From an uncultured virus (IMG/VR IMGVR_UViG_3300042887_005898) (Duplodnaviria; Heunggongvirae; Uroviricota; Caudoviricetes): 20,000 nucleotides of DNA. The stretch lies in IMG/VR virus record IMGVR_UViG_3300042887_005898. One strand, 5' to 3'. The notes below the pieces were generated by a model. It did not search any database, was not told the origin of the DNA, and saw only the letters and a list, made by a program, of their open reading frames with translations. Each line of letters begins with the position of its first letter. The stretch's first letter is position 1. The position numbers and the translations under genes are program-made. Positions 436 through 17,957 of the stretch are shown one piece after another.

Positions 436-813
436 TTATCTCGGAAAATCTAATCCTCTTTCAACAACATTCATTTTATAAGTTTCTGGATTGAATAGAT
501 CAAGAGTGTATTTAATTGCTTTATCAACATCAAAATCTTTACAAGAAAAAATATCTATGAATGTATAGTTTTTTTCTTGAAATGAATGAACAGATAAATG
601 ACTTTCAGCAATGATGACTATGCCTGTAATACCTTTGTCCTCTGGGACTAATCCAGAATAAGGGAAAACATAAGGTTGAGTTATTGGTGTCATACCGATC
701 ATTTCTGGTAAAACTTTTAGATAATTAAAGTGTAATTCATAATTTTCTAAAACTTCTTTCGGACATCCTTTAAGGTCTAATGTCAAGTGTGGACCAAAAC
801 TCTTTTGACTCAT
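436..813 (-). CDS. speD: S-adenosylmethionine decarboxylase proenzyme
   Basis: G-x-H-L-x-L-D N-terminus, IAESHLSVH self-cleavage motif, DIFSCKDF, C-terminal ERG. Confidence 0.93.
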   Translation of the reverse strand: MSQKSFGPHLTLDLKGCPKEVLENYELHFNYLKVLPEMIGMTPITQPYVFPYSGLVPEDKGITGIVIIAESHLSVHSFQEKNYTFIDIFSCKDFDVDKAIKYTLDLFNPETYKMNVVERGLDFPR

Positions 814-931: not shown

Positions 932-1894
932 ATGAAACAAGAACCAATACTAACACCAAATCCTAATCGTTATGTTATCTTTCCTATCAAACATCAGGAT
1001 ATCTGGGAACAATACAAAACATCAGAACATTTGTTCTGGACAGCTGAAGAAATCGATTTAGCTCAAGACTTGACCGACTGGAACGAAAAACTAAATGAAG
1101 ACGAAAAACACTATATCAAAATGATTTTAGCTTTTTTCGCAGCATCAGATGGTATTGTAAATCAAAACTTGGCTCAAAACTTTGTTAACGAAGTTCAATA
1201 TCCAGAAGCAATGTTTTACTATGGATTTCAAATCATGATGGAAAACATTCACTCTGAAACCTATTCTCTTTTAATTGATACTTATATCAAAGATGAAGCA
1301 GAAAGAATTAAGTTGTTCAACGCAATCGAACACATTCCATCAATCATGAAAAAAGCTCAGTGGGCTATTAAATGGATCGATTCACCAAATTTCACAGAAA
1401 GATTAGTAGCTTTCGCAGCAGTAGAAGGAATTTTCTTTTCTGGAGCTTTTTGTTCAATCTTCTGGCTTAAGAAAAGAGGATTGATGCCGGGTCTTTCATT
1501 CTCAAATGAACTTATTTCTCGTGATGAAGGAATGCATTGTAAGTTTGCTACTTTACTTTATAATAAACATATTATAAACAAACTATCTGAGGCAAGAATA
1601 AAAGAAATTATCTGTGAAGCAGTAGAAATCGAGAAAGAATTTATTACAGAATCTCTCCCAGTTTCATTGATTGGTATGAATGGTAACTTGATGAAACAAT
1701 ATATTGAGTTTGTTGCTGACTTCTGGTTAGTGGAACTCGGATGTTCAAAAGTTTTCAACACTGCTAATCCTTTTGATTTTATGGATATGTTAAGTTTACA
1801 AGGAAAGACAAATTTCTTTGAGAAAAGAGTAGGTGAATATAAGAAGGCAACTGACAGAGAGTTTAACTGGAATGAATTAGACAGTGATTTTTAA
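932..1894 (+). CDS. nrdB: ribonucleotide reductase class Ia beta (R2) subunit
   Basis: [51 protein letters not shown] motifs. Confidence 0.97.
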
Positions 1895-1949: not shown

Positions 1950-3611
1950 ATGCTTAAAAATATAATTGAAAAATATATAAATTCGGATAGTCGAAAGAAA
2001 ATTTCTTACTTAGAAAAAGAAATTACTAATCACTCTATACTATATAGTGAGTTCAAAAGAATCTCAAATCCCAATCTAAGCATTAGAAATAACATTTATA
2101 ACATTTATTATGATATAGATTCTATTATCTGTCCTGTTTGTCAGAATCAAAAAGTTGCTTGGAATGAAAAGGATTTTTGTTATAGAAAAACTTGTAGTTA
2201 TAAGTGTTCGGGTAAACTATTGAAAACTGGTAAAAAAGAATATAAGTTTCCAGAAATTGAATCAAAAGAACAATTTATTTCATTAGTTAGGCAAAACAAA
2301 GTTAAACTCACTTCGATTACTAAAACTTCTTACTATGAAGAAGTCAAAAACTATAGAGGTGAAACATTACAAGAGAAAACATTTAGATGGATTAATGAAC
2401 TAAATGATCAAATTTTATGTGACAAAAAAGATTGTCAAAATGAAGTAAGTTTTGTTAATTTCAGTAAAGGTTTTAGACAATTCTGCTCAGTTAAGTGTTC
2501 GTCATCATCTGATATAAAGATTTCAAAAGTTAAAGAAACTTGTCTAGAAAAATACAAAGTAGACAATGTTTCTAAAAGACAGCTACACATTGAAAGATAT
2601 AAAAGTATTCTGAGTAACTTTGATATCATTTCATATGATAGCTCATCTTTTGTTTTGTTTCATCATGATTGTAAAAATCAAATAGAGATAACAAGAAGAA
2701 TGATCTACGATAGAAACAACATGAATACTGAAATTTGTACACACTGTAATAAAATACAGAGTATGCAGTCAGGTTATGAGCTACAACTTAAACAGTGGTT
2801 GATTAACTTAGGTATTAACATCGATGAAAATAATAGGAAAATAATTTATCCAAAGGAGTTAGATTTGTTTCTACCCGACCACAATTTAGCGATTGAATTC
2901 AATGGATTATTCTGGCACTCAGAGAATTATGTTGGTAAGAATTACCATATAGACAAAACAAAACTTTGTGAAGAAAAGAATATCAAACTTATTCATATTT
3001 GGGAAGACGATTGGATTTACAAAAATGATATAGTAAAGTCAATTATAAGTAATAAATTAAAAATTAATCAGAGTAGAGTTTATGCTAGAAATTGTGAAGT
3101 AAGAGAAGTGACTGATGTAAAACTAGTAAAAGACTTTTTAAACAAAAATCATATACAAGGATATTGTAAATCACAGCACAAAATTGGATTATTTTATAAC
3201 AACGAACTTATTTCTTTGATGACTTTTGGGTTCAGAAAAACCAATTCTAAAAAAGAGTTTGAACTAATAAGGTTTTCAAACAAGAAATACTACACAGTTA
3301 TTGGCTCTGCGTCAAAACTATTTAGTTTCTTTGTTAATAAGTATCAACCAGAATTTATTTTATCCTATGCTGACATAAGTTTATTTGATGGGTCCTTATA
3401 TAATAGTCTTGGTTTCAAATTTATTCATAGAACAGAACCAAATTATTATTGGGTTGTTGATGGAATAAGGTATCACAGATGGGTGTTTAATAAAAAGAAA
3501 TTATTAGAGTCTGGTGGTAGTTCTAAGAAAACAGAAAAAGAAATTATGACAGATCGAGGTCATTTTAGAGTTTTTTCTTGTGGTCAAGATAGGTATGAGT
3601 TTACAAAATAA
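1950..3611 (+). CDS. free-standing homing-endonuclease-like protein: Cys-rich Zn-finger repeats, PD-(D/E)xK-like nuclease domain, C-terminal GNAT-like region
   Basis: CPVC..CSYKCS and C..C..FCSVKCS repeats; ELDLFLPDHNLAIEFNGLFWHS and LIHIWEDDW; NHIQG..ELIRF..SYAD..LYNSLGF; directly after nrdB. Confidence 0.7.
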   Translation: MLKNIIEKYINSDSRKKISYLEKEITNHSILYSEFKRISNPNLSIRNNIYNIYYDIDSIICPVCQNQKVAWNEKDFCYRKTCSYKCSGKLLKTGKKEYKFPEIESKEQFISLVRQNKVKLTSITKTSYYEEVKNYRGETLQEKTFRWINELNDQILCDKKDCQNEVSFVNFSKGFRQFCSVKCSSSSDIKISKVKETCLEKYKVDNVSKRQLHIERYKSILSNFDIISYDSSSFVLFHHDCKNQIEITRRMIYDRNNMNTEICTHCNKIQSMQSGYELQLKQWLINLGINIDENNRKIIYPKELDLFLPDHNLAIEFNGLFWHSENYVGKNYHIDKTKLCEEKNIKLIHIWEDDWIYKNDIVKSIISNKLKINQSRVYARNCEVREVTDVKLVKDFLNKNHIQGYCKSQHKIGLFYNNELISLMTFGFRKTNSKKEFELIRFSNKKYYTVIGSASKLFSFFVNKYQPEFILSYADISLFDGSLYNSLGFKFIHRTEPNYYWVVDGIRYHRWVFNKKKLLESGGSSKKTEKEIMTDRGHFRVFSCGQDRYEFTK

Positions 3612-3638
3612 AAAAATCATTAGGAAAGGAAACTTTTA

Positions 3639-3651
3639 TAATATATATTTG
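3639..3651 (+). promoter_or_regulatory. overlapping TAATATATA motif and Bacteroidota -7 element (TATATTTG) upstream of leader 1
   Basis: TAATATATA 3639-3647; TATATTTG 3644-3651 fits TAnnTTTG. Confidence 0.6.
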
Positions 3652-3673
3652 TATAACTTAAAATAGAAAAAAA

Positions 3674-3748
3674 ATGAAAGTTGTTAATAACATATCAATC
3701 ATAGGGAACGGCACTATAGCGGGTGGCCTTCTTTTGCTGATTGGTTAA
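3674..3748 (+). CDS. putative attenuator leader peptide 1 (MKVVNNISIIGNGTIAGGLLLLIG, 24 aa)
   Basis: ATG after an A-rich tract; codons 7-18 are ATA TCA ATC ATA GGG AAC GGC ACT ATA GCG GGT GGC; the 3' end is complementary to the downstream terminator. Confidence 0.75.
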   Translation: MKVVNNISIIGNGTIAGGLLLLIG

Positions 3749-3776
3749 GTATTGACTCTTTCATTCAAGATACTTT

Positions 3777-3807
3777 AAACCCAATCAGTGATGATTGGGT
3801 TTTTTTT
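3777..3807 (+). terminator. intrinsic terminator (attenuator) before tRNA array 1
   Basis: AAACCCAATCA-GTGA-TGATTGGGTTT, perfect 11 bp stem with GNRA loop, T8 at 3800-3807; 5' arm alternatively pairs with CTGATTGG at 3737-3744. Confidence 0.88.
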
Positions 3808-3816
3808 ATTTTATAT

Positions 3817-3890
3817 TGGTGAGTAGCTTAAACGGTAGAAGCACCTGTCTTATACACAGGAGAAAGTGGGATCGTTACCCACCTCACCAA
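3817..3890 (+). tRNA. tRNA-Ile(UAU)
   Basis: Acceptor TGGTGAG/CTCACCA; anticodon arm CCTGT-CT TAT AC-ACAGG; T-arm GTGGG-ATCGTTA-CCCAC. Confidence 0.9.
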
Positions 3891-3897
3891 CTAAACT

Positions 3898-3970
3898 GCA
3901 GAAGTGGTGTTAATGGTTAGCATGTGAGACTTCCACTCTCAAGGTGCCAGTTCGAATCTGGTCTTCTGCT
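3898..3970 (+). tRNA. tRNA-Gly(UCC)
   Basis: Acceptor GCAGAAG/CTTCTGC, U73; TGAGA-CT TCC AC-TCTCA; TTCGAAT T-loop. Confidence 0.93.
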
Positions 3971-3974
3971 CAAT

Positions 3975-4047
3975 GCGAGAGTAGCTCAATAGGTAGAGTA
4001 CCACCTTGCCAAGGTGGATGTTGCCGGATCGTACCCGGTCTCTCGCT
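3975..4047 (+). tRNA. tRNA-Gly(GCC)
   Basis: Acceptor GCGAGAG/CTCTCGC, U73; CCACC-TT GCC AA-GGTGG; T-loop ATCGTAC. Confidence 0.92.
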
Positions 4048-4060
4048 CTTTATAAATAAT

Positions 4061-4134
4061 GGGTCATTGGTGAAGCTGGCTATCACACAAGATTTGCAAT
4101 CTTGAGTCACGAGTTCGAAGCTCGTATGTATCCA
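4061..4134 (+). tRNA. tRNA-Ala(UGC), acceptor stem with a 1 nt bulge
   Basis: CAAGA-TT TGC AA-TCTTG; T-arm ACGAG-TTCGAAG-CTCGT; GGGTCAT pairs with ATG(T)ATCC and keeps G3:U70 and A73. Confidence 0.82.
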
Positions 4135-4139
4135 CAGAT

Positions 4140-4955
4140 TTAGAAATCAGATTTGAAGTATCTAAGCTCACTTTGAGCAAGTTGAGTATCACCTCCAGAG
4201 TATTCTACTAGTGAATTAAACCAAGATGTTCTTATGTCATTTCCTCTTTTTCGATGTCTATCATAAGCGTCTCTTAGAAGAAAAGCACCTGCTTTAATAT
4301 TTGTGATTTGATTATGTTCTTTGAACCCTAGCTTTTTAGCAACAAGATTAAAAGTTGCTGGCATTACTTGACAATAACCAAAAGCACCTGATCCAGCAGA
4401 GTTAGCGATAAATTGAAATCCTGATTCGTGGTCAACAACTCTAAAGAATATTGTATATGGGATTTTATACTTTTCGATTTCGTCAATCATTGTAAAGAAG
4501 ATATCATCAGGTAGTTTAACTAAATTTTGATAATGTGTCAAATTACAATCTCTTTTAATAATAAATTGAAGATACTCACGAGAACCCATAGTTTCTCTTA
4601 GCTGAGTTATAGTAGAATCTTTTCTGTCTAATAGAACATTCGAATTGTAAAGAATATTATTGATCTCTTCTAATTTAGATTCTAATGAGTAGATTTTTTC
4701 TGCTTTATCAGTGAATGATAACCATCTTCCAATTGAAAATAAACCAGTTGTCCAGAAAATAAAGGAGATAACTACAATAACGATTATTTTGTTATTTTTT
4801 AACAGTTGTCTCCAATTTATTTTTCTAAATTCTGGATAGATAAACCATTCTAATATATCGATTAATTGGTATCTAACATACTTTTCAAAAAGTTGATTAT
4901 TGACATGATTCATCAATAACCAACTGTGTAGTTTAATTAAATTTTTCTTAATCAT
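4140..4955 (-). CDS. membrane-anchored lytic transglycosylase (SLT-like)
   Basis: Hydrophobic helix, coiled coil, then HESGF...SAGSGAFGYCQVMPATF...NIKAGAFLL...YSGG; start codon uncertain. Confidence 0.8.
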   Translation of the reverse strand: MIKKNLIKLHSWLLMNHVNNQLFEKYVRYQLIDILEWFIYPEFRKINWRQLLKNNKIIVIVVISFIFWTTGLFSIGRWLSFTDKAEKIYSLESKLEEINNILYNSNVLLDRKDSTITQLRETMGSREYLQFIIKRDCNLTHYQNLVKLPDDIFFTMIDEIEKYKIPYTIFFRVVDHESGFQFIANSAGSGAFGYCQVMPATFNLVAKKLGFKEHNQITNIKAGAFLLRDAYDRHRKRGNDIRTSWFNSLVEYSGGDTQLAQSELRYFKSDF

Positions 4956-5680
4956 CTTAGTTCGTAGAGTTCGTTAATATTTAGTAGTCTATGCTCACAA
5001 TCAACAATTTGTTCTATATTACTTCTATGAAAATGTCCATAAAAATGTTTTTGTATCTTATTGTTTTCATTCAAGATATTCCACATTTTTGTCATTACGG
5101 TTCTTTCTTCGATAAGTTCTTCTTTTAGATTTTCATCGTCAGCACAAAATGTTTCTACTAGATTACCAAATCCCAATTTATTAGTTGGTAAACAAAAGTC
5201 AGGAGCAGTATGTGTAACAAGTATATCGATGCCTCTAAATTCTTTAATCAAATCTTCATTATAGGTAACTTTTTCGTCATACCAATAAGTTCTTCTCCTA
5301 CTCCCGTATCTTGCATATTTCATATTTTCAAGTATTCTTGGTTTTCTGTCAATACTAACAGCACCACCAACAAACAAGAAGTTTTTATTTTCTAAATTAA
5401 GAACTGTATAATCTGGTAATAATTCCAAATTACTATATTTATGTTGTCCTTTGAAAAAGTCTGGATTATCGTGATTTCCTCTTATTGCGTATAAGGTAAT
5501 ATTCTTCTTACTTAAAAAGTCGTTGAAACCTAGTAAAAATCTTGTATCGTTATCTTCATTGGTAAATCCAATACCAAAATCACCTACTTGAATAATGATA
5601 CAGTTATCGATTTTAGTTTTTTCGATATGTTTCATCAAGTAGTTAAAATTCCCATGTATGTCACCAAGTAATAAAATCAT
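4952..5680 (-). CDS. calcineurin-like metallophosphoesterase
   Basis: GDIHG, VGDFG, RGNHD, GGAVSID, THTAP, GHFH motifs; start moved to MILLLGD at 5680 because a promoter lies directly upstream. Confidence 0.88.
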   Translation of the reverse strand: MILLLGDIHGNFNYLMKHIEKTKIDNCIIIQVGDFGIGFTNEDNDTRFLLGFNDFLSKKNITLYAIRGNHDNPDFFKGQHKYSNLELLPDYTVLNLENKNFLFVGGAVSIDRKPRILENMKYARYGSRRRTYWYDEKVTYNEDLIKEFRGIDILVTHTAPDFCLPTNKLGFGNLVETFCADDENLKEELIEERTVMTKMWNILNENNKIQKHFYGHFHRSNIEQIVDCEHRLLNINELYELR

Positions 5681-5684
5681 AATA

Positions 5685-5716
5685 CAAAGATAAGGAAATT
5701 TTTTGGATATTTCAAA
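5685..5716 (-). promoter_or_regulatory. Bacteroidota housekeeping-sigma promoter (-33 TTTG, 20 nt spacer, -7 TATCTTTG)
   Basis: Minus strand TTTG at 5716-5713 and TATCTTTG at 5692-5685, 4 nt before the ATG. Confidence 0.75.
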
Positions 5717-5864
5717 TATCCTCTTTATGTGTGTGTGAAATGACATTCTCATTCCACCACTTTGTAAACTTTGAATTTGGAAAAATTTCTCTTAACTTTT
5801 CACCGACGATAAGACAAGTAAGTAGTAAAAGACCAGAAACTAAAATTATTGTTAGAATATCCAT
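5712..5864 (-). CDS. small membrane protein (50 aa, MDILTIILVSGLLLLTCLIVGEK...KFTKWWNENV...)
   Basis: ORF read manually, not in the track; N-terminal hydrophobic helix; fills the gap between neighbours. Confidence 0.6.
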   Translation of the reverse strand: MDILTIILVSGLLLLTCLIVGEKLREIFPNSKFTKWWNENVISHTHKEDI

Positions 5865-5868
5865 AATA

Positions 5869-6174
5869 CTAATTATTAATTAATGTTAATATACCAGAAA
5901 CTGAAAGAATTATTCCAGTTGATATCATTATATCTGATGTAGATTTAGAAATTTTATTAGTTTGATTTAATAAAATAGTAGTTCCTGTTAAAGCTAATCC
6001 AGTTGATAGAAAAATCACACTACTTTTTTTTGACACATCATTACTCTTTTTAAATTGTTCTTGTGCCGATTTAATAGATTGTGGATTACTATTATAGTAA
6101 TAGTTACTATTAGTCTTCTGTGAAATAACAGAAGTACTTAAAAAAAGTAGTAATATTGTAAATATTTTACTCAT
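5869..6174 (-). CDS. hypothetical exported or membrane protein
   Basis: Bacteroidota-like signal peptide ending ..SQ, two C-terminal hydrophobic segments. Confidence 0.65.
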   Translation of the reverse strand: MSKIFTILLLFLSTSVISQKTNSNYYYNSNPQSIKSAQEQFKKSNDVSKKSSVIFLSTGLALTGTTILLNQTNKISKSTSDIMISTGIILSVSGILTLINN

Positions 6175-6275
6175 TTAACAGTTTCAACTTTATCATAAGC
6201 TGCACATTTAGGATGTTTTGAAACACAAGAAAATAGAGCTATTGATAAGATTAGAAATATAATTACATTTTTCAT
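6171..6275 (-). CDS. small lipoprotein (34 aa, MKNVIIFLILSIALFSCVSKHPKCAAYDKVETVK)
   Basis: Manual ORF; lipobox LFSC; ATGA overlap with the next gene; TAATATATA at 6289-6281. Confidence 0.7.
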   Translation of the reverse strand: MKNVIIFLILSIALFSCVSKHPKCAAYDKVETVK

Positions 6276-6375
6276 ATTGTTATATATTAAAAATAACTAA
6301 AAAAGTTTTGCTCAAAAAATGAATTAAACTTAATTTACTTTATCAATAGAATAATTAAATAAAAAAAATTGTGAT

Positions 6376-7068
6376 ATGAAAATTGGATGGTTTGTTGGTA
6401 CAAAAACTTTCACTACTTCAGGAGAGTTAAAGAGTAAGCCTCAGCTTGATCTCTTAATTATGGAACCCGAAAAAGTTGGAGTCACTGATGAACACGGTAG
6501 TTATAAATATTGTCCAGCTTTTGCTATTTACACTAATCAAACTTTTTTACTAAGATCACCTTTTGATTTAGAATTAAATTTCTATAATAATGAAGTAAAT
6601 GTTTTATACTCTTCGATATCACCTAATGTTATCAAAGACCATCTTACAATTGATATGGAGAAAAATCCAATTGTTCAATTAGAACTTCATATTGGTTTTG
6701 TTGCTGATGAAACTTGTTTTATTGAACTGACAAGTGATCACTTTAGTACAAATCGTCCAAATAATCATGTAAGAGTTGTTCCTGGTACTTATGATATCTC
6801 AAGTTGGCAGAGACTTCTTAACTACTCGATTGAATGGACAGATACTTCAAAACCAATTTCAATTAAAAGAGGAGATCCACTTTTATATGTGAGGTTCAGA
6901 ACCAAAAATCCGAGTGAGAAGTTTGAACTAAAAAGAATTGAAATGACAGATGATTTATTAAAATCAGTTGCTAGATCACAACTTTCTAAATTTTATGTTT
7001 CAGGTAAAACTTGGACACTAATGAAACTTAATAAATTAATGAGACGAAAAATAAAATTTGTGAAATAA
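6376..7068 (+). CDS. hypothetical phage protein, possibly dUTPase-like beta fold
   Basis: 230 aa; CPA, LRSPFD, VPGTYDISSWQR and IKRGDPL motifs; no intact dUTPase motif set. Confidence 0.55.
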   Translation: MKIGWFVGTKTFTTSGELKSKPQLDLLIMEPEKVGVTDEHGSYKYCPAFAIYTNQTFLLRSPFDLELNFYNNEVNVLYSSISPNVIKDHLTIDMEKNPIVQLELHIGFVADETCFIELTSDHFSTNRPNNHVRVVPGTYDISSWQRLLNYSIEWTDTSKPISIKRGDPLLYVRFRTKNPSEKFELKRIEMTDDLLKSVARSQLSKFYVSGKTWTLMKLNKLMRRKIKFVK

Positions 7069-7094
7069 AAATTAACATTTAAGAAAATATAACT

Positions 7095-7150
7095 TATATT
7101 TGTAAAATAAATCGAAAAATACAAAACAAGGTAAGAATTTTTAATATATA
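7095..7150 (+). promoter_or_regulatory. tandem promoter elements upstream of leader 2
   Basis: TATATTTG at 7095-7102 and TAATATATA at 7142-7150; same layout as 19817-19890. Confidence 0.65.
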
Positions 7151-7157
7151 ATAAACA

Positions 7158-7265
7158 ATGAAAACAATGAATCTAAATATGACAAATTTGAATCTCACGG
7201 TGGTGAATACATTATGTATTAGAACCATGAGGTCGGGTATTGCCAAATTTAGAATTGTCTCATAA
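7158..7265 (+). CDS. putative attenuator leader peptide 2 (MKTMNLNMTNLNLTVVNTLCIRTMRSGIAKFRIVS, 35 aa)
   Basis: 20 of the first 25 codons encode M/T/N/V/C/I/R, the seven amino acids of array 2; AGGTCGGGT at 7230-7238 is complementary to the terminator 5' arm. Confidence 0.8.
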   Translation: MKTMNLNMTNLNLTVVNTLCIRTMRSGIAKFRIVS

Positions 7266-7292
7266 CATAGAGAATTAAGTCTAAAGATACAC

Positions 7293-7324
7293 AAACCCGA
7301 CCTTGAAAAAGAGTCGGGTTTTTT
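7293..7324 (+). terminator. intrinsic terminator (attenuator) before tRNA array 2
   Basis: AAACCCGAC-CTT-GAAA-AAG-(A)-GTCGGGTTT followed by a T-run. Confidence 0.88.
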
Positions 7325-7342
7325 ATTTTTGGATAAAAAGAT

Positions 7343-7415
7343 GGTTCCTTCATCTAACTGGAAAAGATATCTCTCTTCTAAAGAGATTATAGAGGTTCGA
7401 ATCCTCTAGGAACTA
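7343..7415 (+). tRNA. tRNA-Arg(UCU)
   Basis: GGTTCCT/AGGAACT; TCTCT-CT TCT AA-AGAGA; AGAGG-TTCGAAT-CCTCT. Confidence 0.9.
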
Positions 7416-7423
7416 CTAAAAAT

Positions 7424-7496
7424 TGACCAGAAGCTAGTACGGTACAGCGGCGGTTTGTTAAACCGAGGATAGTGGGATCGTTACCCACCTGGTAAG
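7424..7496 (+). tRNA. tRNA-Asn(GUU)
   Basis: TGACCAG/CTGGTAA (one mismatch), G73; CGGT-TT GTT AA-ACCG; T-arm GTGGG-ATCGTTA-CCCAC. Confidence 0.82.
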
Positions 7497-7503
7497 CTAA
7501 AAT

Positions 7504-7586
7504 GTACAGATGGTAGAGTGGCGAATACAACAGCCTGCAAAACTGTAGTCGAAAGACCGTCGGGGGTTCGAGTCCCTCTCTGTACT
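7504..7586 (+). tRNA. tRNA-Cys(GCA) with a long variable arm
   Basis: GTACAGA/TCTGTAC, U73; ACAGC-CT GCA AA-ACTGT; variable hairpin GTC-GAAA-GAC; TTCGAGT T-loop. Confidence 0.82.
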
Positions 7587-7592
7587 CAAAAT

Positions 7593-7665
7593 AGTCCTGT
7601 AGCTCAATCGGGGGAGCGCCACTCTTACATAGTGGAGGAAGTCGGATCGTAACCGACCGGGACTA
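7593..7665 (+). tRNA. tRNA-Val(UAC)
   Basis: AGTCCTG/CGGGACT; CCACT-CT TAC AT-AGTGG; GTCGG-ATCGTAA-CCGAC. Confidence 0.9.
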
Positions 7666-7672
7666 CTAAAAT

Positions 7673-7745
7673 TGTCAGTTAGCTCATTTGGTAGAGCACT
7701 TGTCTGATACACAAGAGGTGCCGGGATCGTAACCCGGACTGACAA
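7673..7745 (+). tRNA. tRNA-Ile(GAU)
   Basis: TGTCAGT/ACTGACA; CTTGT-CT GAT AC-ACAAG; CCGGG-ATCGTAA-CCCGG. Confidence 0.9.
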
Positions 7746-7751
7746 CTTAAT

Positions 7752-7825
7752 GCATTCTTCGTATAGTTGGTCTATTACTCTGGATTTGTAACCCAGAAAC
7801 GCCAGTTCGAATCTGGCAGAATGCT
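7752..7825 (+). tRNA. tRNA-Thr(UGU)
   Basis: GCATTCT/AGAATGC; CTGGA-TT TGT AA-CCCAG; GCCAG-TTCGAAT-CTGGC. Confidence 0.88.
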
Positions 7826-7836
7826 CTAATCAAAAT

Positions 7837-7908
7837 AGCGATATAGTGTAAAGGTTAGCTCACTTGGCTCATATCCTTGAGGATCAGGTTCGATTCCTGA
7901 TATCGCTA
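7837..7908 (+). tRNA. tRNA with CAU anticodon (Met most likely), weak anticodon stem
   Basis: AGCGATA/TATCGCT; CTTGG-CT CAT AT-CCTTG has two T-T mismatches; TCAGG-TTCGATT-CCTGA. Confidence 0.72.
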
Positions 7909-7987
7909 CAATATTATCTCAGAGTTAATAATGTGTCATGTTTTTTTATAATCTACATGTTTTTTCTTATAGAAAAATATATAAATT

Positions 7988-8716
7988 ATGGAAAAAATTA
8001 AAACACTATTTATAAGTGATGTTCACCTTGGAAGTTCTAGTTCAAATGCATCTAAATTATTACAGGTATTTAAATTATATGAATTTGAAAACTTAATCAT
8101 AATTGGTGACTTTATAGATATGACTTCACTGAAGAGAAGATTTTTTTGGACTCAAGATCACTCGACTGTTATTCAAAAAGTTCTTAGATTTTCTAGAAAA
8201 GAAGTCAATGTAGTTTATATCATTGGAAATCATGACTTCTATATACGAAATCTTATAGATGAAGGGCCAATTAACATAGGTGAAATTAAAATATGTGATG
8301 AACATATCTATGAAACAATCAGTGGTGAAAAAATATTTATAACACACGGTGATTGTTTTGATGGATTTATTAGATTACATCCTTTTTTGTACTTTCTTGG
8401 TGATAAAGCTTATTCACTTTCGATCTCCATTAATAAGTATTATAATATTATTAGAGGTCTTTTTGGGTTTCAATATTGGAGTTTATCTTCTTATTTAAAG
8501 ACTAAAGTAAAAAATGTAGTAAAGTTTGTTACTGAATATAGAACCATGTCTGAGAAAAAATTGAAAGAAGTCAATTGTGATTCTATAATGATTGGACATA
8601 CTCACACACCTGAAATTCAACTCGGTAGTTATTATAATACTGGTGATTTTTGTGAGAGCTGTAGCTATATTATAGAAAGCATCGAAGGTCAAATAGAATT
8701 AAGATATATTAGATGA
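7988..8716 (+). CDS. LpxH/PlcP-like metallophosphoesterase (UDP-2,3-diacylglucosamine hydrolase family)
   Basis: FISDVHLG, GDFID, GNHD, HGDCFD, YWSLSSYLKTKVKNVV, GHTH, YYNTGDFCESCS. Confidence 0.87.
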   Translation: MEKIKTLFISDVHLGSSSSNASKLLQVFKLYEFENLIIIGDFIDMTSLKRRFFWTQDHSTVIQKVLRFSRKEVNVVYIIGNHDFYIRNLIDEGPINIGEIKICDEHIYETISGEKIFITHGDCFDGFIRLHPFLYFLGDKAYSLSISINKYYNIIRGLFGFQYWSLSSYLKTKVKNVVKFVTEYRTMSEKKLKEVNCDSIMIGHTHTPEIQLGSYYNTGDFCESCSYIIESIEGQIELRYIR

Positions 8717-9675
8717 AAATATTATATGGTGTACAAGGAACAGGTAATGGTCACATCACTCGTTCAATAAAAATGATTACTACTCTAAAGAGTATGGGAT
8801 TCGAAGTTGATACTTTAGTTTCAGGTAGTAATTATCAAATCAATCTTCCTTTTGAATGTAAATTTAATTTTAAGGGTTTTAATTTTTCTTTTAATAAAGA
8901 TGGTAGTATAAATAAATTTAATACATTAATAGAAAATGACTTTTATCAATTCTTAAAAGATACTAAAATTGATTTGAAACAATATGATACTCTAATTACA
9001 GATTTTGAACCAATTTTAGCATGGTCGGCAAAGTTTAAAGAACGAGAGATATGGGGTATAGGAAATCAATATTCTTTTTTATCAAAGAATTCTCCAAGAC
9101 CTACAAAAAAAGATTTAATTGGTGAGACTGTTCTAAAATGGATGGCACCTGTAACAAACCCAATAGGTATTCATTTTCAAAGATATGACGATTTTATCGA
9201 ATTGCCGATAATAAGAGATGATATCATTTATGGTAAACTAGAAGATTTTGGTCACTATACTGTTTATCTACCGAATGTTAATTTGAAAGAATTAGTTAAT
9301 GAACTTAATAGTTTTACTAAAAATAGATTTCATATATTTAGTAACACATACTACTATAATACTGAATATAGAAATTGTAGAATATATCCTTTAGATAAAT
9401 TTATGTTTCAGAAAAGTTTTTTGACATCTACCGGCGTGATAACAACTGGTGGTTTTCAAACAACATCTGAGTCACTATATTGTGGTAAAAAATTACTAGT
9501 AATACCAATAAACAATCAATATGAACAAATGTGTAATGGTGAGTCTCTTAGTAGATTAGGTATCAAAGTTGGTCAGTTATCAGATATAGGGAATTTTCTA
9601 ACTTCATGTAAAAATGTTAAATTAACTTGGGAAGATCCTACGAATAAAATAATATCAATGATTACTAAAAGTTAA
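8713..9675 (+). CDS. GT-B glycosyltransferase (MJ1255/VC2487-like family)
   Basis: MKILYGVQGTGNGHITRS, ITDFEP, GGFQTTSESLYCGKKLLVIP..QYEQ..N; ATGA overlap with the upstream gene. Confidence 0.87.
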   Translation: MKILYGVQGTGNGHITRSIKMITTLKSMGFEVDTLVSGSNYQINLPFECKFNFKGFNFSFNKDGSINKFNTLIENDFYQFLKDTKIDLKQYDTLITDFEPILAWSAKFKEREIWGIGNQYSFLSKNSPRPTKKDLIGETVLKWMAPVTNPIGIHFQRYDDFIELPIIRDDIIYGKLEDFGHYTVYLPNVNLKELVNELNSFTKNRFHIFSNTYYYNTEYRNCRIYPLDKFMFQKSFLTSTGVITTGGFQTTSESLYCGKKLLVIPINNQYEQMCNGESLSRLGIKVGQLSDIGNFLTSCKNVKLTWEDPTNKIISMITKS

Positions 9676-12457
9676 ATTTAGCAGACAGAGTAATAGTTTG
9701 ACCAAATTGAACTTTTTGCCAATCGTTATCACCTAAATTAAATCTTTGATTATTATTCAAATCCTGAAAATAAATCAAATCCTGTGCTAAAATATCTTTA
9801 ATATTTAATTTTAACTCACAATTCTTAATTTTCTTTGATATTTGAAAATCTAAGACATGTCTTTCATTCTCCCATACACTTGGCTCTTGTACATTACCAA
9901 CTATATAAATTCTTGGACCAACTATATTATAAGAAATATTCGTTGAAAAGGTATTATCAGTATTATTCCAGTATAATCCAGTGTTAAAAACATAAGGTGA
10001 TTGTCCTTGTAGTGGTCTATTACCACCAGAACCGATTACTTCATCCATCATCACATTAGATTTTATAAATGCTAAATTTGAATTTATTGATAGGTTTTTA
10101 TAAATTTTTGATTTAATATCGATTTCAACACCAATGTTTTTTGCTTTATATACATTGTCATAATAAAGCTCTGGTGAACCAGATGTTCCTGTTCTATTAA
10201 TTATTTCTATCGGATTTATGAATTCTTTATAGAAACCAGAAACAGAGAATACTTGATTATTTGATGGGTAATACTCAAATCTCAAATCATAATTGTTTAT
10301 TATTGTTCTTTTTAGATAAGGATTTCCAGAAGTGATATTATCTTGTATGAAGTTATAAAAACTAAAAGGAGCTAGCTCTCTAAATTCTGGACGCGAAACC
10401 GTTTTTGAGTAGCTAGTTCTAACTTTAAATTTGTCGACATTAAAACTCAGATTAATACTTGGTAATAAATCTACAACTGTAGAATCAATTGTCTTTTTTA
10501 AGTTACTACCAAACTCAATATAGTTAAACCTTTGATTGTATGATTCAATTCGTAATCCAACATTTAAATTTACATTTTTAGTTTTGGTATCTATCATCAA
10601 ATAACCAGCATTTAATGTGGAATTAGCATCATAACTATCATCTACATTTGTTGACTCATCTAATTTGAATCCGCCTTGACCATTTTGAAGTAGTCCCATA
10701 TTTTCTATTGAAAAGATCTCATCTGTGTTTAATAGTAATAGTTCGCTATTGAATGTACTTCCAGTTGGTCGATATTGAGAGAATCCAAAGTTCCTGCTTG
10801 TAAAGTCTCTATTTCTATATTGAAAGAAGTAACCTGATTTAATTTCGCTTTTAATTTGACTTATTTCTAAATCTTTTGCATAATCTACTCTACCACCATA
10901 AACTTTTTCATTACTCTTAGACCAAAACATATTACCAGCAGCAGTTGGTATTGTACCATTAGTCTGAATTACTGCAACATACTCTTCATTAGGATCATTT
11001 TCTAAAAGTGAATATTTTCTATAAACAATTCTTCTTAGGTTTGGTATTTCTCTCTTAATATCACTGTGATTTATAGACCATTCAATTTTTGATTTGCTGA
11101 ACTCATGATTTCCTATTAATTGTTGTGTTAGTAGATTATTTTGAGTGTACCATAAGTTGGTTGACTTCTCCCACTGATGTGGATCATTATCCATTTCTCT
11201 TACACCATATCTTTTATTCACTTTGTCTTCAGAATTGATAGAATATAAGTTTTTGAACTTAATTGAGTTTTTATCATTGATTTTGAATTTGAAGTTTAAT
11301 AAACCAGTATTTAGAACATTTTGAGTAAATACTGAATCTCTTAGAATCATTTTTGTGATCACTTCGGTTTCTGATTCTTCAAATTCTTTTCTAACTATAT
11401 TATTTTGATTGTAGTTCAATTGATAATTATAATTGAAAACAAACCCAAATGAAGATTTATCTTTTCTTATCTTCCAGTTTCTACCAAATCCGAATTGTAA
11501 ATTCTGATTTAATGGTGACTTTATGTTTTTAGTAGACCAATCATTTTTTATTAATTTTGATAATTCTGCTTTTTCATTTTTGTTTAAATCTGAAAATTCT
11601 TCTGTACTTGGTAATCCGTTTGGTAATGATCTATAATCAGTTCCAAACCCAATAAAGTCACCTTTTGAACAATTATAAGTGTTGAAATTTCTAAAAGTAG
11701 AAATTGTATTGTATGACTGACCAATTTGAACATAAGAAAAATCATTATCCTTTATATCTTGTGTATTGATATTAATAATTCCTCCAGCAAACTCACCTGG
11801 TAGATCTGATGATGCTGTCTTCTGAATAAGAATATTATCTATCATATTTGAGGAAAATATATCAAATGAAAATGCTCTTTTATCACTTTCTGAACTCGGT
11901 AGAGGCGAACCATTAAGTAAACCAAAGTTGTATCTATCATTTAGACCTCTTATAATGACAAATTTGTTGTCTTGTATGGAAGCACCACTTATTCTTTTTA
12001 ATACATCTGAAGCTTTTGAATCAGGAGTTTTCTTGAATATTTCTGATGTTGTTCCGTCTACGACAGAACTGGAGTTCTTTTGTGTTAGTATCAAATCAAC
12101 TTGTGTGTCTTTGTCTCTAGTCGCGAAAATTTTGAGTTCTTTTGAGTCTGTTTTATCATCTCTTTTCATTTTGATGACTATTGAACCAGTCGGACTAGAT
12201 TCAACGATATTCACTTTGACAGAGTAGTCTAAGTAGGTGACATATCTAATTTCAATTTCATGCGATCCAGTCGGTAAAATTAGTTCAAATTTACCATCAA
12301 TATCCGAGACTGTTCCAGTGTTTAGTTTAGGACAATATACAACTGCACCAATAAGTGACTCGTTTGAGGTTGAGTCACTTATTGTACCAATCAATTTTGC
12401 CTGACTTAGTAGTTGTGTAGAAACTAAAATTAAAAAAGACAATAAAACTGACCTCAT
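9665..12457 (-). CDS. TonB-dependent outer-membrane receptor with N-terminal carboxypeptidase-regulatory-like domain
   Basis: Signal peptide; G..SDIDGKF; plug motif IIRGLNDRYN; SRPEFRELAPF; DLRFEYYP; RPLQGQSPY; terminal aromatic residue (KFNF). Confidence 0.93.
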   Translation of the reverse strand: MRSVLLSFLILVSTQLLSQAKLIGTISDSTSNESLIGAVVYCPKLNTGTVSDIDGKFELILPTGSHEIEIRYVTYLDYSVKVNIVESSPTGSIVIKMKRDDKTDSKELKIFATRDKDTQVDLILTQKNSSSVVDGTTSEIFKKTPDSKASDVLKRISGASIQDNKFVIIRGLNDRYNFGLLNGSPLPSSESDKRAFSFDIFSSNMIDNILIQKTASSDLPGEFAGGIININTQDIKDNDFSYVQIGQSYNTISTFRNFNTYNCSKGDFIGFGTDYRSLPNGLPSTEEFSDLNKNEKAELSKLIKNDWSTKNIKSPLNQNLQFGFGRNWKIRKDKSSFGFVFNYNYQLNYNQNNIVRKEFEESETEVITKMILRDSVFTQNVLNTGLLNFKFKINDKNSIKFKNLYSINSEDKVNKRYGVREMDNDPHQWEKSTNLWYTQNNLLTQQLIGNHEFSKSKIEWSINHSDIKREIPNLRRIVYRKYSLLENDPNEEYVAVIQTNGTIPTAAGNMFWSKSNEKVYGGRVDYAKDLEISQIKSEIKSGYFFQYRNRDFTSRNFGFSQYRPTGSTFNSELLLLNTDEIFSIENMGLLQNGQGGFKLDESTNVDDSYDANSTLNAGYLMIDTKTKNVNLNVGLRIESYNQRFNYIEFGSNLKKTIDSTVVDLLPSINLSFNVDKFKVRTSYSKTVSRPEFRELAPFSFYNFIQDNITSGNPYLKRTIINNYDLRFEYYPSNNQVFSVSGFYKEFINPIEIINRTGTSGSPELYYDNVYKAKNIGVEIDIKSKIYKNLSINSNLAFIKSNVMMDEVIGSGGNRPLQGQSPYVFNTGLYWNNTDNTFSTNISYNIVGPRIYIVGNVQEPSVWENERHVLDFQISKKIKNCELKLNIKDILAQDLIYFQDLNNNQRFNLGDNDWQKVQFGQTITLSAKFNF

Positions 12458-14016
12458 TGTTTAATTATATTTTTAAAAACTTTTTCATTTACTTGAACAG
12501 TGTAAATACCATAGTCTAAACTTGATAAGTTTATTTCTGTACTATTAAAACCTTTATTTATATTTACAATCTGACCTAAGTGATTATAAACCTTCACAAT
12601 TATCGGACCATCTAATTTTATGTTTACAACTCCTAATGTTGGATTAGGATAAATAATCAAACTTTGGTCTAAATCATTATAAACATTATTAATTAATCCC
12701 AATTTTGAATGTGTAAAGTCAGCATTATTTGATACAATTGAATTTTCGTTAAGTCTAGCATCTGGATTAGAATTAAATATATCTACCCAATTAATTTCTG
12801 AAACAGACATTATTGAATCATTTTGATTAGTGGAAAAGAATTCATAGAAACTCGCTAGTGAAGTCACACAATTATTTGGTATGTTTGATAAAACATTATT
12901 TGAAAAAACAAGAGAACCGTTAGTTACATTAGATTCTGTAGCTGTTCCTTCAATTGATAACCCTTTTTCCCAACCTGTCACTAAAGAATTAAAAACTGAG
13001 ATAGAAGAATTTCTTCTGATTCTAAAAGCTTTTTCAAATTTTTCACCAACAGGTAAAACTTGAGATCCATCACCAAGTGGACCAACTATTGTAAAATTTG
13101 AAAACACGGCCGCGGTTTGTGGTAAATTAGATGAACCGGTTGCATCATTATCACTTTCAAAACAGTTTGAATCACCAGGAGCATCGTATCTTGTGTTGTC
13201 ACGAATTGCTAATCCAAACTGAACATTACCTCTATATCCAAAGTCTGTATCAAAGTCATCATCGATACCTTTGTAGGCGATTAAGTGTTTACAGTTCACA
13301 GTACCACCAAACCACTCAAATGAGTCATCACCTGAAAATGATACTTGTACAAAATCAATTATAGTCAATGAACCGACTGAACCAAAAGTAATACCATTTA
13401 TTTCTTTATTTGGCTCAAGTGGAATGCCACCAAATTCAACTCTAACATATCTTAAAATACCTGAGTTATCAGAATCATCACTACCACCATATTGTGTGTT
13501 AGAAGATGGTGTTATTCCCTCAATGTTTGCGAATCCTCCTGGTTGATTATTAACTGCTTTACCTAAAATAACCAATCCTCCCCAATCTCCTTCAGCTCTT
13601 AAACCGATCTCTTCGTTTGATGTGAAAATAATTGGTTGATCTTGTGTTCCGTCAGCGATTATTTTTGAACCTTTAGTTATGATAAGAGTTCCTTGTGTTG
13701 AGTAATCACCTCTTATGATTGTTCCAGGCAGAATTGTTAGTGTTGCATTATTTGTTACATATACTTTATTTTGCAAAAGTATTACACCACTTAATGTAGT
13801 ATTACTGGTAATGTCATTTGATAATACAGTATTTGTTTGTGGATAATCTGTATTTTCTGGATCAAAATTAGACCAACCAGATGTCCAGTTAGTAGCAGGA
13901 GTATTATCTGTTACCGGAAATGCACCTTTGTAAGAAGTTTGATCCCAGAAGGAATTTTGGCAAATTACTAAATTAGTAAAAGCTAAAAAAAGAATTAAAA
14001 TTGATAATCTTTTCAT
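12454..14016 (-). CDS. secreted beta-helix-like protein with a type IX secretion (T9SS type A) C-terminal sorting domain
   Basis: Signal peptide from MKRLSIL (14016); PIIFTS..GDWGGLVILG..DNSGILRYVRVEFGG..GDDSFEWFGGTVN; C-terminal IYPNP...YNHLGQ...GIYTVQV...KNIIKQ. Confidence 0.87.
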   Translation of the reverse strand: MKRLSILILFLAFTNLVICQNSFWDQTSYKGAFPVTDNTPATNWTSGWSNFDPENTDYPQTNTVLSNDITSNTTLSGVILLQNKVYVTNNATLTILPGTIIRGDYSTQGTLIITKGSKIIADGTQDQPIIFTSNEEIGLRAEGDWGGLVILGKAVNNQPGGFANIEGITPSSNTQYGGSDDSDNSGILRYVRVEFGGIPLEPNKEINGITFGSVGSLTIIDFVQVSFSGDDSFEWFGGTVNCKHLIAYKGIDDDFDTDFGYRGNVQFGLAIRDNTRYDAPGDSNCFESDNDATGSSNLPQTAAVFSNFTIVGPLGDGSQVLPVGEKFEKAFRIRRNSSISVFNSLVTGWEKGLSIEGTATESNVTNGSLVFSNNVLSNIPNNCVTSLASFYEFFSTNQNDSIMSVSEINWVDIFNSNPDARLNENSIVSNNADFTHSKLGLINNVYNDLDQSLIIYPNPTLGVVNIKLDGPIIVKVYNHLGQIVNINKGFNSTEINLSSLDYGIYTVQVNEKVFKNIIKQ

Positions 14017-14170
14017 AAATAAAGTTTTTTTTTCAACTTTATATATCATCCAGAAATCAAAAGGAACAGTTAATATTTTGATTATTACATCGAAATAATC
14101 ATGTAAAATCAGACCAATAAAGGCACTCAGTAATATATTAAGAAACTGCTATCAATCAGTAAACTCAGTG

Positions 14171-16724: not shown

Positions 16725-17957
16725 ATGAATATAAAAGAAACTTTTTTAAGTCTTACTACTCGAACTTACCCACACGGAACTGAACAAGATTTGTTCCACC
16801 TACTTCCACAAGATTTAGAAGTTGATGATTTCGGAAACCTTTACAAGCAAATCGGTGATAATCCTTCTACTATGTTTGCTTGTCACTTAGATACAGCCAC
16901 TTCAGCAAGAACTACAATTAAACATACTTTTGACGGTAATCTCATCAAAAGTGATGGTACTACAATCTTAGGTGCTGATGATAAAGCCGGTGTTACAATA
17001 CTACTTAATATGATTGAGAATAATATTCCAGGTCTTTATTACTTTTTCTTAGGAGAAGAAGTTGGATGTCAAGGATCTAAGAAAGTTGCTCAACTACACA
17101 AAGACAAACCTTTAGAAAATATTAAAAAAGTAATTTCCTTTGATAGGCGAGGAACTACTTCAATCATTACGCACCAATGTTCTAGTAGATGTTGTTCAGA
17201 TAACTTCGGAAATGCTTTGGCATCTGAATTAAATAGAACAGGTCTTGATGTAGAAGGATTTGACGAAATTGTTTTTGACTATAAGAACGATCCAACAGGA
17301 TTATATACAGACTCTGCACAGTTTACTAAAATTTATCCAGAATGTACAAACATTTCCGTTGGTTATAGAAATGAACATACTTTTGACGAATTTCAAGATA
17401 TCAAACACTTAGAGAAGCTTGCTCAAGCTGTACTTAAAGTTGATTGGGAAAATCTACCAGTTGAAAGAGATCCTTCAAAAGTTGATTATTCATATGGTTA
17501 TGATAACTGGGATGATTATTACAACTATCCAAGTTACAGACCTACTTATAAAGGTGGTACAACAACTACTAATTATCAAAGTGCTTTCGCTACAAAAGGA
17601 TATGATGAAAACATTTGGTTCTTAGATAATGAACACGAAAACTATGTTTCTTGTGTTAAAACAAATACTTACACCAAAAAGGTTTCTAAAACTGATTTGA
17701 GTAAATCAAGAATCAATTTTGAAACAGACCTTATCGGGCAATTTTTAATGTCACTAGATGTTAATTATGAATCATTAAAATGGGATGGATTCAATCTTAC
17801 AGTAAGGTACCGATTAAGTGCAGGTGGACATGTAACTGAATGTGATAGAAATGAATTGTCTGAGTTTTTACCTGAACTAGATTTCTGGAAAAAACATAAT
17901 GAAGAAGAAACTAAAAAAGAATATACCAAAGAAACTTATAAAAACTTTTTTGACTGA
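16725..17957 (+). CDS. M28/M20-family zinc peptidase-like protein
   Basis: [39 protein letters not shown]; start moved to MNIKETF at 16725, downstream of a TATCTTTG element. Confidence 0.82.

Follow-up and report, generated by a model that had tools for sequence, protein, structure and literature searches.

Predicted leader-peptide attenuators in front of the tRNA arrays of an uncultured tailed phage and its huge relatives

Introduction

How does a phage adjust the supply of its own tRNAs? The question is raised by two tRNA arrays of an uncultured virus of the Caudoviricetes (IMG/VR record IMGVR_UViG_3300042887_005898), of which a stretch of 20,000 nucleotides, called the window here, has been analysed. 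Each array is preceded by a promoter-like site, a short open reading frame (ORF) and an intrinsic terminator whose 5' arm can also pair with the ORF. A sequence-only reading of the window proposed that such units are leader-peptide attenuators that sense the very tRNAs they gate, and this proposal is supported in silico by codon matching, by conservation of the reading frame and by covariation of both competing helices. To our knowledge, leader-peptide attenuation is not known as a control of bacterial tRNA genes, and little is known of how phage tRNA genes are regulated. The two units, named unit 1 and unit 2, are probably ribosome-mediated transcription attenuators of the trp/his type that gate tRNA genes and are subject to negative feedback by their own product. 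What we infer in this conclusion is that the leaders are translated, which way the switch turns and what the physiological signal is.

Two units with the layout of classical attenuators

The order of promoter, short ORF, competing hairpin, terminator and tRNA array had been noticed twice from the letters alone, and ORF, terminator, fold and tRNA searches confirm it for both units (Table 1). Segments 1:2, 2:3 and 3:4 of both units produce the classical four-segment attenuator layout, and the minimum free energy (MFE) fold of each untranslated leader consists of a leader-internal (1:2) hairpin followed by the terminator. The units were said to have architecture but not sequence in common. Their peptides and stems do differ, and the promoter-like motif proves to be common to both as well.

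In unit 1, segment 1 pairs with segment 2 in the untranslated MFE fold of 3660-3812. The antiterminator helix is formed by 3737-3744 and 3781-3788 (8 bp, 100% complementary, inverted repeat I3), and the core of segment 2, CTGATTGG at 3737-3744, is a direct repeat (D1) of the terminator 3' arm and complements the 5' arm. The terminator hairpin has an energy of -14.3 kcal/mol, and the leader region folds at -49.0 kcal/mol (z -6.5, with 0 of 200 shuffled sequences as good). In unit 2, inverted repeat I2 (7172-7185/7240-7253) pairs segment 1 with the segment 2 region, and the antiterminator helix is inverted repeat I1 (7230-7256/7277-7303). The segment 2 core GGTCGGGT repeats the terminator 3' arm. 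The antiterminator duplex of this unit (-18.6 kcal/mol, z -5.96) is matched by 0 of 300 shuffles and its leader region fold (-49.9 kcal/mol, z -5.3) by 0 of 200.

The whole 20 kb contains two strong terminators on the plus strand, which are those of units 1 and 2, and one weak terminator on the minus strand. A second scan of 3000-8500, with 1.6 terminators expected per shuffle, found that of unit 1 only, the loop of unit 2 being over its size limit. The distance to the first tRNA is 14 nt from the terminator stem in unit 1 and 21 nt from the terminator in unit 2, and there is therefore no space for a separate promoter. An Rfam scan of 3000-8500 with E up to 1 revealed no T-box and no leader family (His, Leu, Thr, Trp or other), and on the terminator it gave sub-threshold chance hits only, for example rnk_pseudo with 26.7 bits against a cut-off of 55. 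One member of array 2, the tRNA-Asn(GTT), is degenerate. It was recovered by Rfam and by relaxed ARAGORN with introns, a setting that makes many false calls and was applied to this tRNA and to a few Rfam-only sites.

Table 1 Features of the window and of the related genome W01 (W01 synthetase genes are given as locus:position; empty cells, not given)
Feature	Sequence or content	Position	Strand	Basis or remark
Unit 1 promoter-like site	TTAGG (3620-3624), 19-nt spacer, TATATTTG (3644-3651)	3620-3651	+	motif scan
Leader ORF 1, 24 codons	MKVVNNISIIGNGTIAGGLLLLIG	3674-3748	+	
Unit 1 segment 1, over Ile codons	AUCAAUCA	3694-3701	+	MFE fold of 3660-3812
Unit 1 segment 2, antiterminator 5' arm	CUGAUUGGU	3737-3745	+	ends 1 nt before stop codon
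Unit 1 intrinsic terminator	arms 3777-3787/3792-3802, 11 bp, 100% complementary, T run to 3813	3777-3813	+	
tRNA array 1	Ile(TAT), Gly(TCC), Gly(GCC), Ala(TGC)	3817-4133	+	ARAGORN, Rfam RF00005
Unit 2 promoter-like site	TATATTTG	7095-7102	+	motif scan
Leader ORF 2, 35 codons	MKTMNLNMTNLNLTVVNTLCIRTMRSGIAKFRIVS	7158-7265	+	
Unit 2 segment 1, partner of segment 2 region when untranslated		7172-7197	+	MFE fold, inverted repeats I2, I4
Unit 2 segment 2, antiterminator 5' arm	core GGUCGGGU at 7231-7238	7228-7256	+	
Unit 2 intrinsic terminator	stem 7293-7321, then T run	7293-7331	+	
tRNA array 2	Arg(TCT), Asn(GTT), Cys(GCA), Val(TAC), Ile(GAT), Thr(TGT), Met(CAT)	7343-7909	+	ARAGORN, Rfam
tRNA-Asn(GTT) of array 2, degenerate		7424-7497	+	Rfam 30.4 bits (cut-off 29), relaxed ARAGORN; missed by default ARAGORN
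W01 leader, His/Phe/Trp/Lys array	HKNFSKSHKWF			
W01 leader, Lys x4 array	MKTKLKYKR			
W01 leader, Arg/Ser array	SKSSSRSSS			
W01 leader, Glu/Tyr array	SYESYYEE			
W01 leader, Ile(TAT)/Gly array	NNISIAVIGNGAGAI			homologue of window leader 1
W01 leader, Asn/Leu/Thr/Val/Ile/Met/Arg array				homologous to window leader 2
W01 leader, Pro/Asp array	PVNPQPQDQDP			
W01 leader, Gln array (three tRNA-Gln)	MTTTQQIQQQQINQTD			
W01 synthetase gene, PheRS-like, class II (F) core	leader MNTNTTFNFFFSHKMV, run FNFFF	L033:13818-14897	-	Pfam
W01 synthetase gene, class I (I/L/M/V), 735 aa	leader MNFNTIIIIRYSIPWSIPIG, run IIII	L022:2047-4254	+	Pfam
W01 synthetase gene, class I (I/L/M/V), 443 aa	leader MKTINLNNLVVVNVSV, run VVV	L004:14378-15709	-	Pfam
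W01 synthetase gene, class II (D/K/N)	leader MKTMTINNRNRLTDII, run NNRN	L022:10522-11700	+	Pfam
W01 synthetase gene, class II (D/K/N)	leader MKNIRLNDDRFLLTNCKADW, run DD	L019:16643-17944	+	Pfam
S-adenosylmethionine decarboxylase		436-813	-	
Ribonucleotide reductase small subunit		932-1894		phage-type gene
Homing (HNH-type) endonuclease, 553 aa		1950-3611	+	between ribonucleotide reductase small-subunit gene and tRNA unit 1
Family 1 glycosyltransferase		8713-9675	+	
TonB-dependent receptor, 930 aa	CarboxypepD_reg and Plug domains	9665-12457	-	
531-aa protein	T9SS C-terminal sorting domain	12454-14049	-	
Orotidine 5'-phosphate decarboxylase		17957-18763	+	

Leader codons match the arrays that follow

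Leader codons were matched to tRNAs by simple wobble rules, and the long ORFs of the window supplied the background codon usage. The own array reads 9 of 23 codons of leader 1 (0.39; background 0.11; binomial p 4.6e-4), namely three ATA, all five Gly codons and GCG, and 21 of 34 codons of leader 2 (0.62; background 0.25; binomial p 8e-6), or 16 of 34 without the Asn tRNA. With the array of the other unit, the match falls to 0.22 for leader 1 and to 0.12 for leader 2. Each leader had been claimed to fit its own array over the other, and the counts bear this out.

The nearest DNA relatives of the window in the phage collection, as found by blastn, are two uncultured phage records of 634,780 bp (W01) and 642,428 bp (W02). 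The leader regions matched W01 and W02 only in this collection, and cultured phages matched at the tRNAs alone. These two complete genomes were compared together with a more distant IMG/VR genome of 508 kb (G001), which was found via locus L195. The IMG/VR label of G001 is 'provirus'. In W01 and W02, all terminators and ATG-initiated ORFs of at least 8 codons were listed upstream of each tRNA that follows a gap of at least 90 nt. W01 and W02 have eight units each, whose leader peptides name the array that follows, and G001 has seven; each W01 leader has an orthologue in W02.

The pairing of leaders with arrays was scored as the fraction of leader codons that an array reads, summed over units. 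The true pairing is the single best of 40320 permutations in W01 (sum 2.80 against 0.93 ± 0.32) and in W02 (2.77 against 0.88 ± 0.33), and the single best of 5040 permutations in G001 (2.65 against 1.11 ± 0.36). The correlation between leader codons and arrays, proposed from the window alone, thus extends to the other arrays of three genomes. A genome-wide control considered all strong terminators, defined by a stem of at least 8 with at least 4 G-C pairs. A tRNA lies within 130 nt after 7 of 97 of them in W01 and after 6 of 99 in W02, and a short ORF ends just upstream in all 13 cases.

The leader MNTLIYIGYIAEGGYEAGSFVNGLVLPMRKV of G001, which is rich in I, Y, G, A and E (L332:938-1033), stands before a Glu/Tyr/Gly/Ile(TAT)/Ala array that extends from L332:1102, whereas its counterpart in W01 and W02 consists of two leaders and two arrays. 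One merged leader in place of two suggests that leader composition follows array content and that the two co-evolve.

Conserved Lys-rich mini-ORFs of 9-10 codons (MKTKLKYKR-like) are located before Lys arrays at W01 343136-343165, W02 373590-373619 and L331:2872-2904, and the terminator detector found no terminator at these mini-leaders. ARAGORN also called a tRNA with anticodon CTA (amber-reading type) at L328:1131 of G001 and, at 407364-407437 within the W01 Asp array, a tRNA whose anticodon loop was called as four bases (gtag).

Reading frame and both helices are conserved in the leader families

A first IMG/VR pattern, ATGAATYTAAATATGA, was of too low complexity and was dropped, 1 of 80 examined loci being a true family member. 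The core pattern of leader 2 detected 17 IMG/VR loci and at least 120 metagenome loci. Among the matches listed, an in-frame ATG-initiated ORF of at most 45 codons is present at 105 of 137 loci, and a terminator was detected at 78 of these 105 (60 distinct sequences). Among the same matches, 62 distinct loci have a short ORF of at most 60 codons with tRNAs downstream, and of the 378 tRNAs within 1.5 kb of these loci, 369 carry one of the amino acids N, L, T, V, I, M, R and C. These eight are the commonest residues in the 43 distinct peptides of the family, whose leaders are 34-43 aa long.

The 62-row alignment A1 of this family keeps the reading frame. All 150 gap runs in its coding part are multiples of 3 (3 or 6 columns), and the spacer after the stop codon contains gap runs of 1, 2, 4, 5, 7, 8, 10 and more. 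All three stop codons are used in the family, so that a changed genetic code is not called for.

The terminator stem occurs in the versions CTCAG/CTGAG, CGAAC/GTTCG, CGACC/GGTCG (the window), CCTAG/CTAGG, CAGAT/ATCTG, CAATT/AATTG and CTTAG/CTAAG. Segment 2, which lies in the ORF, changes in step with the stem and thereby alters the peptide, which reads SEG or CEG, GSG, RSG, SRG, ESG or GLG. Covariation was scored in alignment A2, which has 61 rows (59 distinct) and from which locus L301, carrying GGA for GGG, was left out. The rows of A2 are related, and its cells are not independent events: 89.4% of them are paired in the antiterminator (2:3), where 5 of 9 pairs and 67 cells are changed on both sides, and 99.2% in the terminator (3:4), where 5 of 9 pairs and 82 cells are changed on both sides. 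The covariation score is 0.317 for the antiterminator against 0.087 for shuffled alignments and 0.407 for the terminator against 0.082, and 0 of 500 shuffles reach either value. The best slid register pairs 51.6% and 55.1% of the cells, respectively.

The members found of the unit 1 leader family are the window, locus L322, W01 and W02, all before Ile(TAT)/Gly arrays, with a conserved N-terminal part (MK..NNIS...G.G). The IleGly pattern search for relatives of this unit gave four hits, one of them real. Compared with the window, the L322 terminator has G for A in its 5' arm and, in compensation, C for T in its 3' arm. By inspection of the sequences, segment 2 of L322 keeps its pairing through one G·U, and the W01 and W02 homologues have a shifted 7-bp antiterminator, also with one G·U. 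The Ile/Gly/Ala tRNA region, which is contiguous in the window, is split in W01 by protein-coding genes between Gly(TCC) and Gly(GCC) (L001:4160-4900 and 4920-5790; W01 about 367170-368800).

Ribosome position and the proposed switch

Sixteen units were folded up to the terminator loop with a 30-nt ribosome footprint forced open at each codon. In nearly all of them, the terminator 5' arm pairs upstream while the ribosome occupies the leader's first half to first two thirds, which hold most of the cognate codons, and this pairing is lost when the ribosome is over segment 2. The number of pairs is 7 at codons 1-14 and 0 at codons 15-22 in unit 1, and at least 7 at codons 1-22 and 0 at codons 23-27 in unit 2. 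Such footprint-constrained folds had been put forward as a check on the attenuator proposal, and they yield the antiterminator with the ribosome on early cognate codons and its loss over the last third of the leader. Together with the codon correlation, this agrees with the proposal in all the in-silico checks that had been suggested for it. The antiterminator duplex is clearly better than shuffles in 7 of 16 units (z at most -2.3) and not clearly so in the rest, which include unit 1 of the window.

From the anatomy of the units, we propose the following mechanism. Transcription from a host-type promoter would enter the short leader ORF, which would be translated at once. When the codons in its first two thirds, which match the tRNAs of the array, are decoded fast, the ribosome would move onto segment 2, allowing the terminator (3:4) to form and to end transcription 14-21 nt before the tRNAs. 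When the leader is untranslated, segment 1 would hold segment 2, and the terminator would form too. When charged cognate tRNA is scarce, the ribosome would stall on segment 1, the 2:3 antiterminator would form and transcription would read through into the array. The product tRNAs would then speed up leader translation, thereby closing a negative feedback loop, one for each tRNA block.

Promoter and translation signals

Of the 18 leaders in the window, W01 and W02, 13 have the motif TAnnTTTG within 120 nt upstream, about 10% being expected, and the motif lies mostly within a common block, (A/T)TT(A/T)GG..AAACTTTTAT.TATATTTGTA. Leaders that lack it lie within longer arrays, and transcription may reach them from the preceding unit. 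No Shine-Dalgarno sequence is visible before the leaders in the window, W01 or W02, and the start codons are preceded by A-rich stretches. The promoter-like motif presumably resembles the Bacteroidota -33/-7 consensus, and we take the A-rich starts to fit translation initiation in the same phylum. A second conserved block of about CTTTTTAATATATAAGAAATA is located directly before several leader start codons in the window, W01 and W02 (in unit 2 of the window at 7133-7157, TTTTTAATATATAATAAACA). A second promoter, of phage type, is one candidate for its role, and an element of translation initiation is another.

Points that weigh against attenuation

Several observations weigh against attenuation as the function of these units. 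The antiterminator duplex of unit 1 (-8.4 kcal/mol) is equalled by 59 of 300 shuffles; the duplexes of its family range from -8.4 to -9.2 kcal/mol and are not above shuffles (59/300 and 41/300), and four family members are too few for covariation. The unit 1 antiterminator is therefore plausible but weakly supported. In the simple folding model of unit 2, antiterminator pairing returns once the ribosome has reached the last four codons or the stop codon, which lies 24 nt beyond segment 2, so that termination must depend on timing. Many units, including unit 2, form the antiterminator without a ribosome when folded before the 3' arm is present, so that termination of an untranslated leader rests on the order of folding.

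The codon matches are incomplete as well. Leader 1 includes Leu, Val and Asn codons outside the reach of array 1, and leader 2 retains four Leu codons although array 2 of the window has no tRNA-Leu. Locus L224, whose leader is identical to leader 2, has Leu(TAA) between Ile and Thr; tRNA arrays turn over faster than leaders. The ProAsp units are individually weak, with 5 of 30 codons (p 0.16) and 5 of 34 codons (p 0.21) matched, and the AspPro unit of G001 matches 2 of 24, lower than its cross-matches. No terminator was detected at 27 of the 105 short ORFs of the unit 2 family among the matches listed. The covariation scores of A2 lean towards structure by construction, the alignment being anchored on the GGG-carrying leader site most complementary to the terminator arm; the anchoring G columns are invariant or nearly so in A1. 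Finally, an attenuator is blind to the difference between tRNA loss and amino-acid loss, and its anatomy therefore does not fix the selected signal. Candidate signals are codon-usage mismatch with the host, starvation, infection phase and host tRNA-cleaving defences.

Alternative explanations

Phage tRNAs can offset tRNA-cleaving defences, and the attenuators could be real with counter-defence against host anticodon nucleases or other tRNA-depleting defences as their selected role, which is the anti-defence side of the sequence-only reading. Any loss of cognate charged tRNA would trigger the mechanism, and the arrays comprise many isotypes with a sensor of their own for each block. However, the sequences give no pointer to defence over codon-usage mismatch or infection timing, and the presence of the same kind of leader on synthetase genes is more easily reconciled with control of translation supply in general than with a response specific to nucleases. 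We regard this specific role as unlikely.

The short ORFs might encode functional small peptides, or the terminated leaders might act in trans as small RNAs, with the proximity to tRNAs being secondary. The N-termini of the peptides are indeed conserved, and trans-acting attenuator RNAs and leader peptides are described for other bacteria (rnTrpL/peTrpL). However, peptide composition tracks the array rather than a protein fold, with Q runs before Gln arrays and K runs before Lys arrays, and the C-terminal halves vary freely while RNA pairing is kept. A role in trans could add to attenuation but not replace it, and as a substitute for it we consider this explanation very improbable. Even less credible is that the terminators serve as plain insulators or mark where the upstream genes (1950-3611 and 6376-7068) end, with incidental short ORFs and arrays that live on leaky, unregulated read-through. 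Both terminators are downstream of plus-strand genes, the unit 1 antiterminator is not above chance, and TAnnTTTG is common in the AT-rich window (26 copies on the plus strand of 20 kb), but such insulators would leave unexplained why in three genomes no permutation matches leaders to arrays as well as the true pairing does, why the family conserves a reading frame and why a segment of the leader and the terminator arm covary even at a cost to the encoded amino acids. A translation-free switch, in which the leader RNA binds a tRNA directly (T-box-like) or a protein, is the least credible of all, for although terminator and antiterminator are the output stage of T-box and protein-dependent attenuators too, no T-box match was found in the Rfam scan and both the frame-keeping indels and the conservation from ATG to stop favour translation.

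Comparison with known systems

In amino-acid operon attenuators, stalling of the ribosome on the leader leads to read-through of the terminator. Ribosome-mediated attenuation of the phage units would follow the same logic, and like the enterobacterial ilvGMEDA, thr, trp, his, leu and pheA attenuators, the units combine a codon-enriched leader, segments pairing as 1:2, 2:3 and 3:4, and a Rho-independent terminator. A single phage leader would sense several amino acids, as the multivalent ilvGMEDA and thr leaders do. Unlike the enterobacterial attenuators, the phage units are followed by tRNA genes and not by genes for biosynthetic enzymes, so that the product tRNA would be the molecule that the sensor reads. 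Their likely host lineage, Bacteroidota, is also different, and no Shine-Dalgarno sequence is visible.

Five aminoacyl-tRNA synthetase genes of W01, identified by Pfam, each follow a promoter-like site, a cognate-rich short ORF and a terminator, and they seem to be under the same control as the tRNAs of this genome. The pheST operon of E. coli, in which the Phe-rich pheM leader precedes the genes for phenylalanyl-tRNA synthetase, is a synthetase operon attenuated by a cognate leader, and the FNFFF leader and terminator before the PheRS-like gene of W01 resemble it. A cognate leader before a synthetase gene is therefore of a known kind, which ties the phage units to leader-peptide attenuation. 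Unlike pheST, the targets in the window are tRNA arrays. T-box elements also sense tRNA status, choose between terminator and antiterminator and stand upstream of translation-supply genes; they bind uncharged tRNA directly and without a ribosome, whereas the phage leaders keep a reading frame.

The departure from known attenuators would thus be that tRNA genes, rather than biosynthesis or synthetase genes, are the regulated targets. An attenuator before the tRNA-Phe genes of E. coli was considered as a possible precedent and is not borne out by the sequence; upstream of pheV and pheU of K-12 there is a promoter only, with no Phe-rich ORF and no terminator. No description of leader-peptide attenuation of tRNA genes was found in full-text literature searches, whose reach ends at subscription journals and old scans.

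Genomic context

The window has a G+C content of 26-36%. Its DNA was detected in metagenomes from lakes and other fresh waters sequenced in 14 studies, some of which may have been its source, and no RNA run is listed as containing 3400-8100. Phage-type content includes the ribonucleotide reductase gene, an SLT lysozyme domain and metallophosphoesterases, and the gene just upstream of unit 1 encodes the homing endonuclease (Table 1). The TonB-dependent receptor and the T9SS-sorted protein are hallmarks of Bacteroidota and an odd cargo for a phage. Genes for S-adenosylmethionine decarboxylase, orotidine 5'-phosphate decarboxylase and a family 1 glycosyltransferase are present as well. In a huge-phage study, the genomes of more than 634 kb are predicted to replicate in Bacteroidetes (PMC7162821); the passages of that study that were searched contain 0 occurrences of attenuat, leader and terminator.

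Implications

Beyond the two units of the window, it is possible, and we propose it tentatively, that huge Bacteroidota-type phages possess a multi-channel closed-loop tRNA homeostat, in which each tRNA block, and in the relatives also synthetase genes, is turned on by slow decoding of its own codons. If so, the homeostat would gauge the charged-tRNA pool of the host for each codon family, top up shortages and shut itself off upon arrival of the tRNAs, thereby compensating automatically for tRNA depletion by host defences or by the infection itself. A classical amino-acid sensor would have been turned into a sensor of tRNA supply with its own product as effector, and it would become understandable that huge phages carrying 50-70 tRNAs do not produce them needlessly. 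The leader peptides would be a readable record of the codons that a phage expects to be limiting in its host, and each unit would offer a genetic switch that is both compact and codon-specific. Reporters would then allow a direct test of why phages carry tRNAs.

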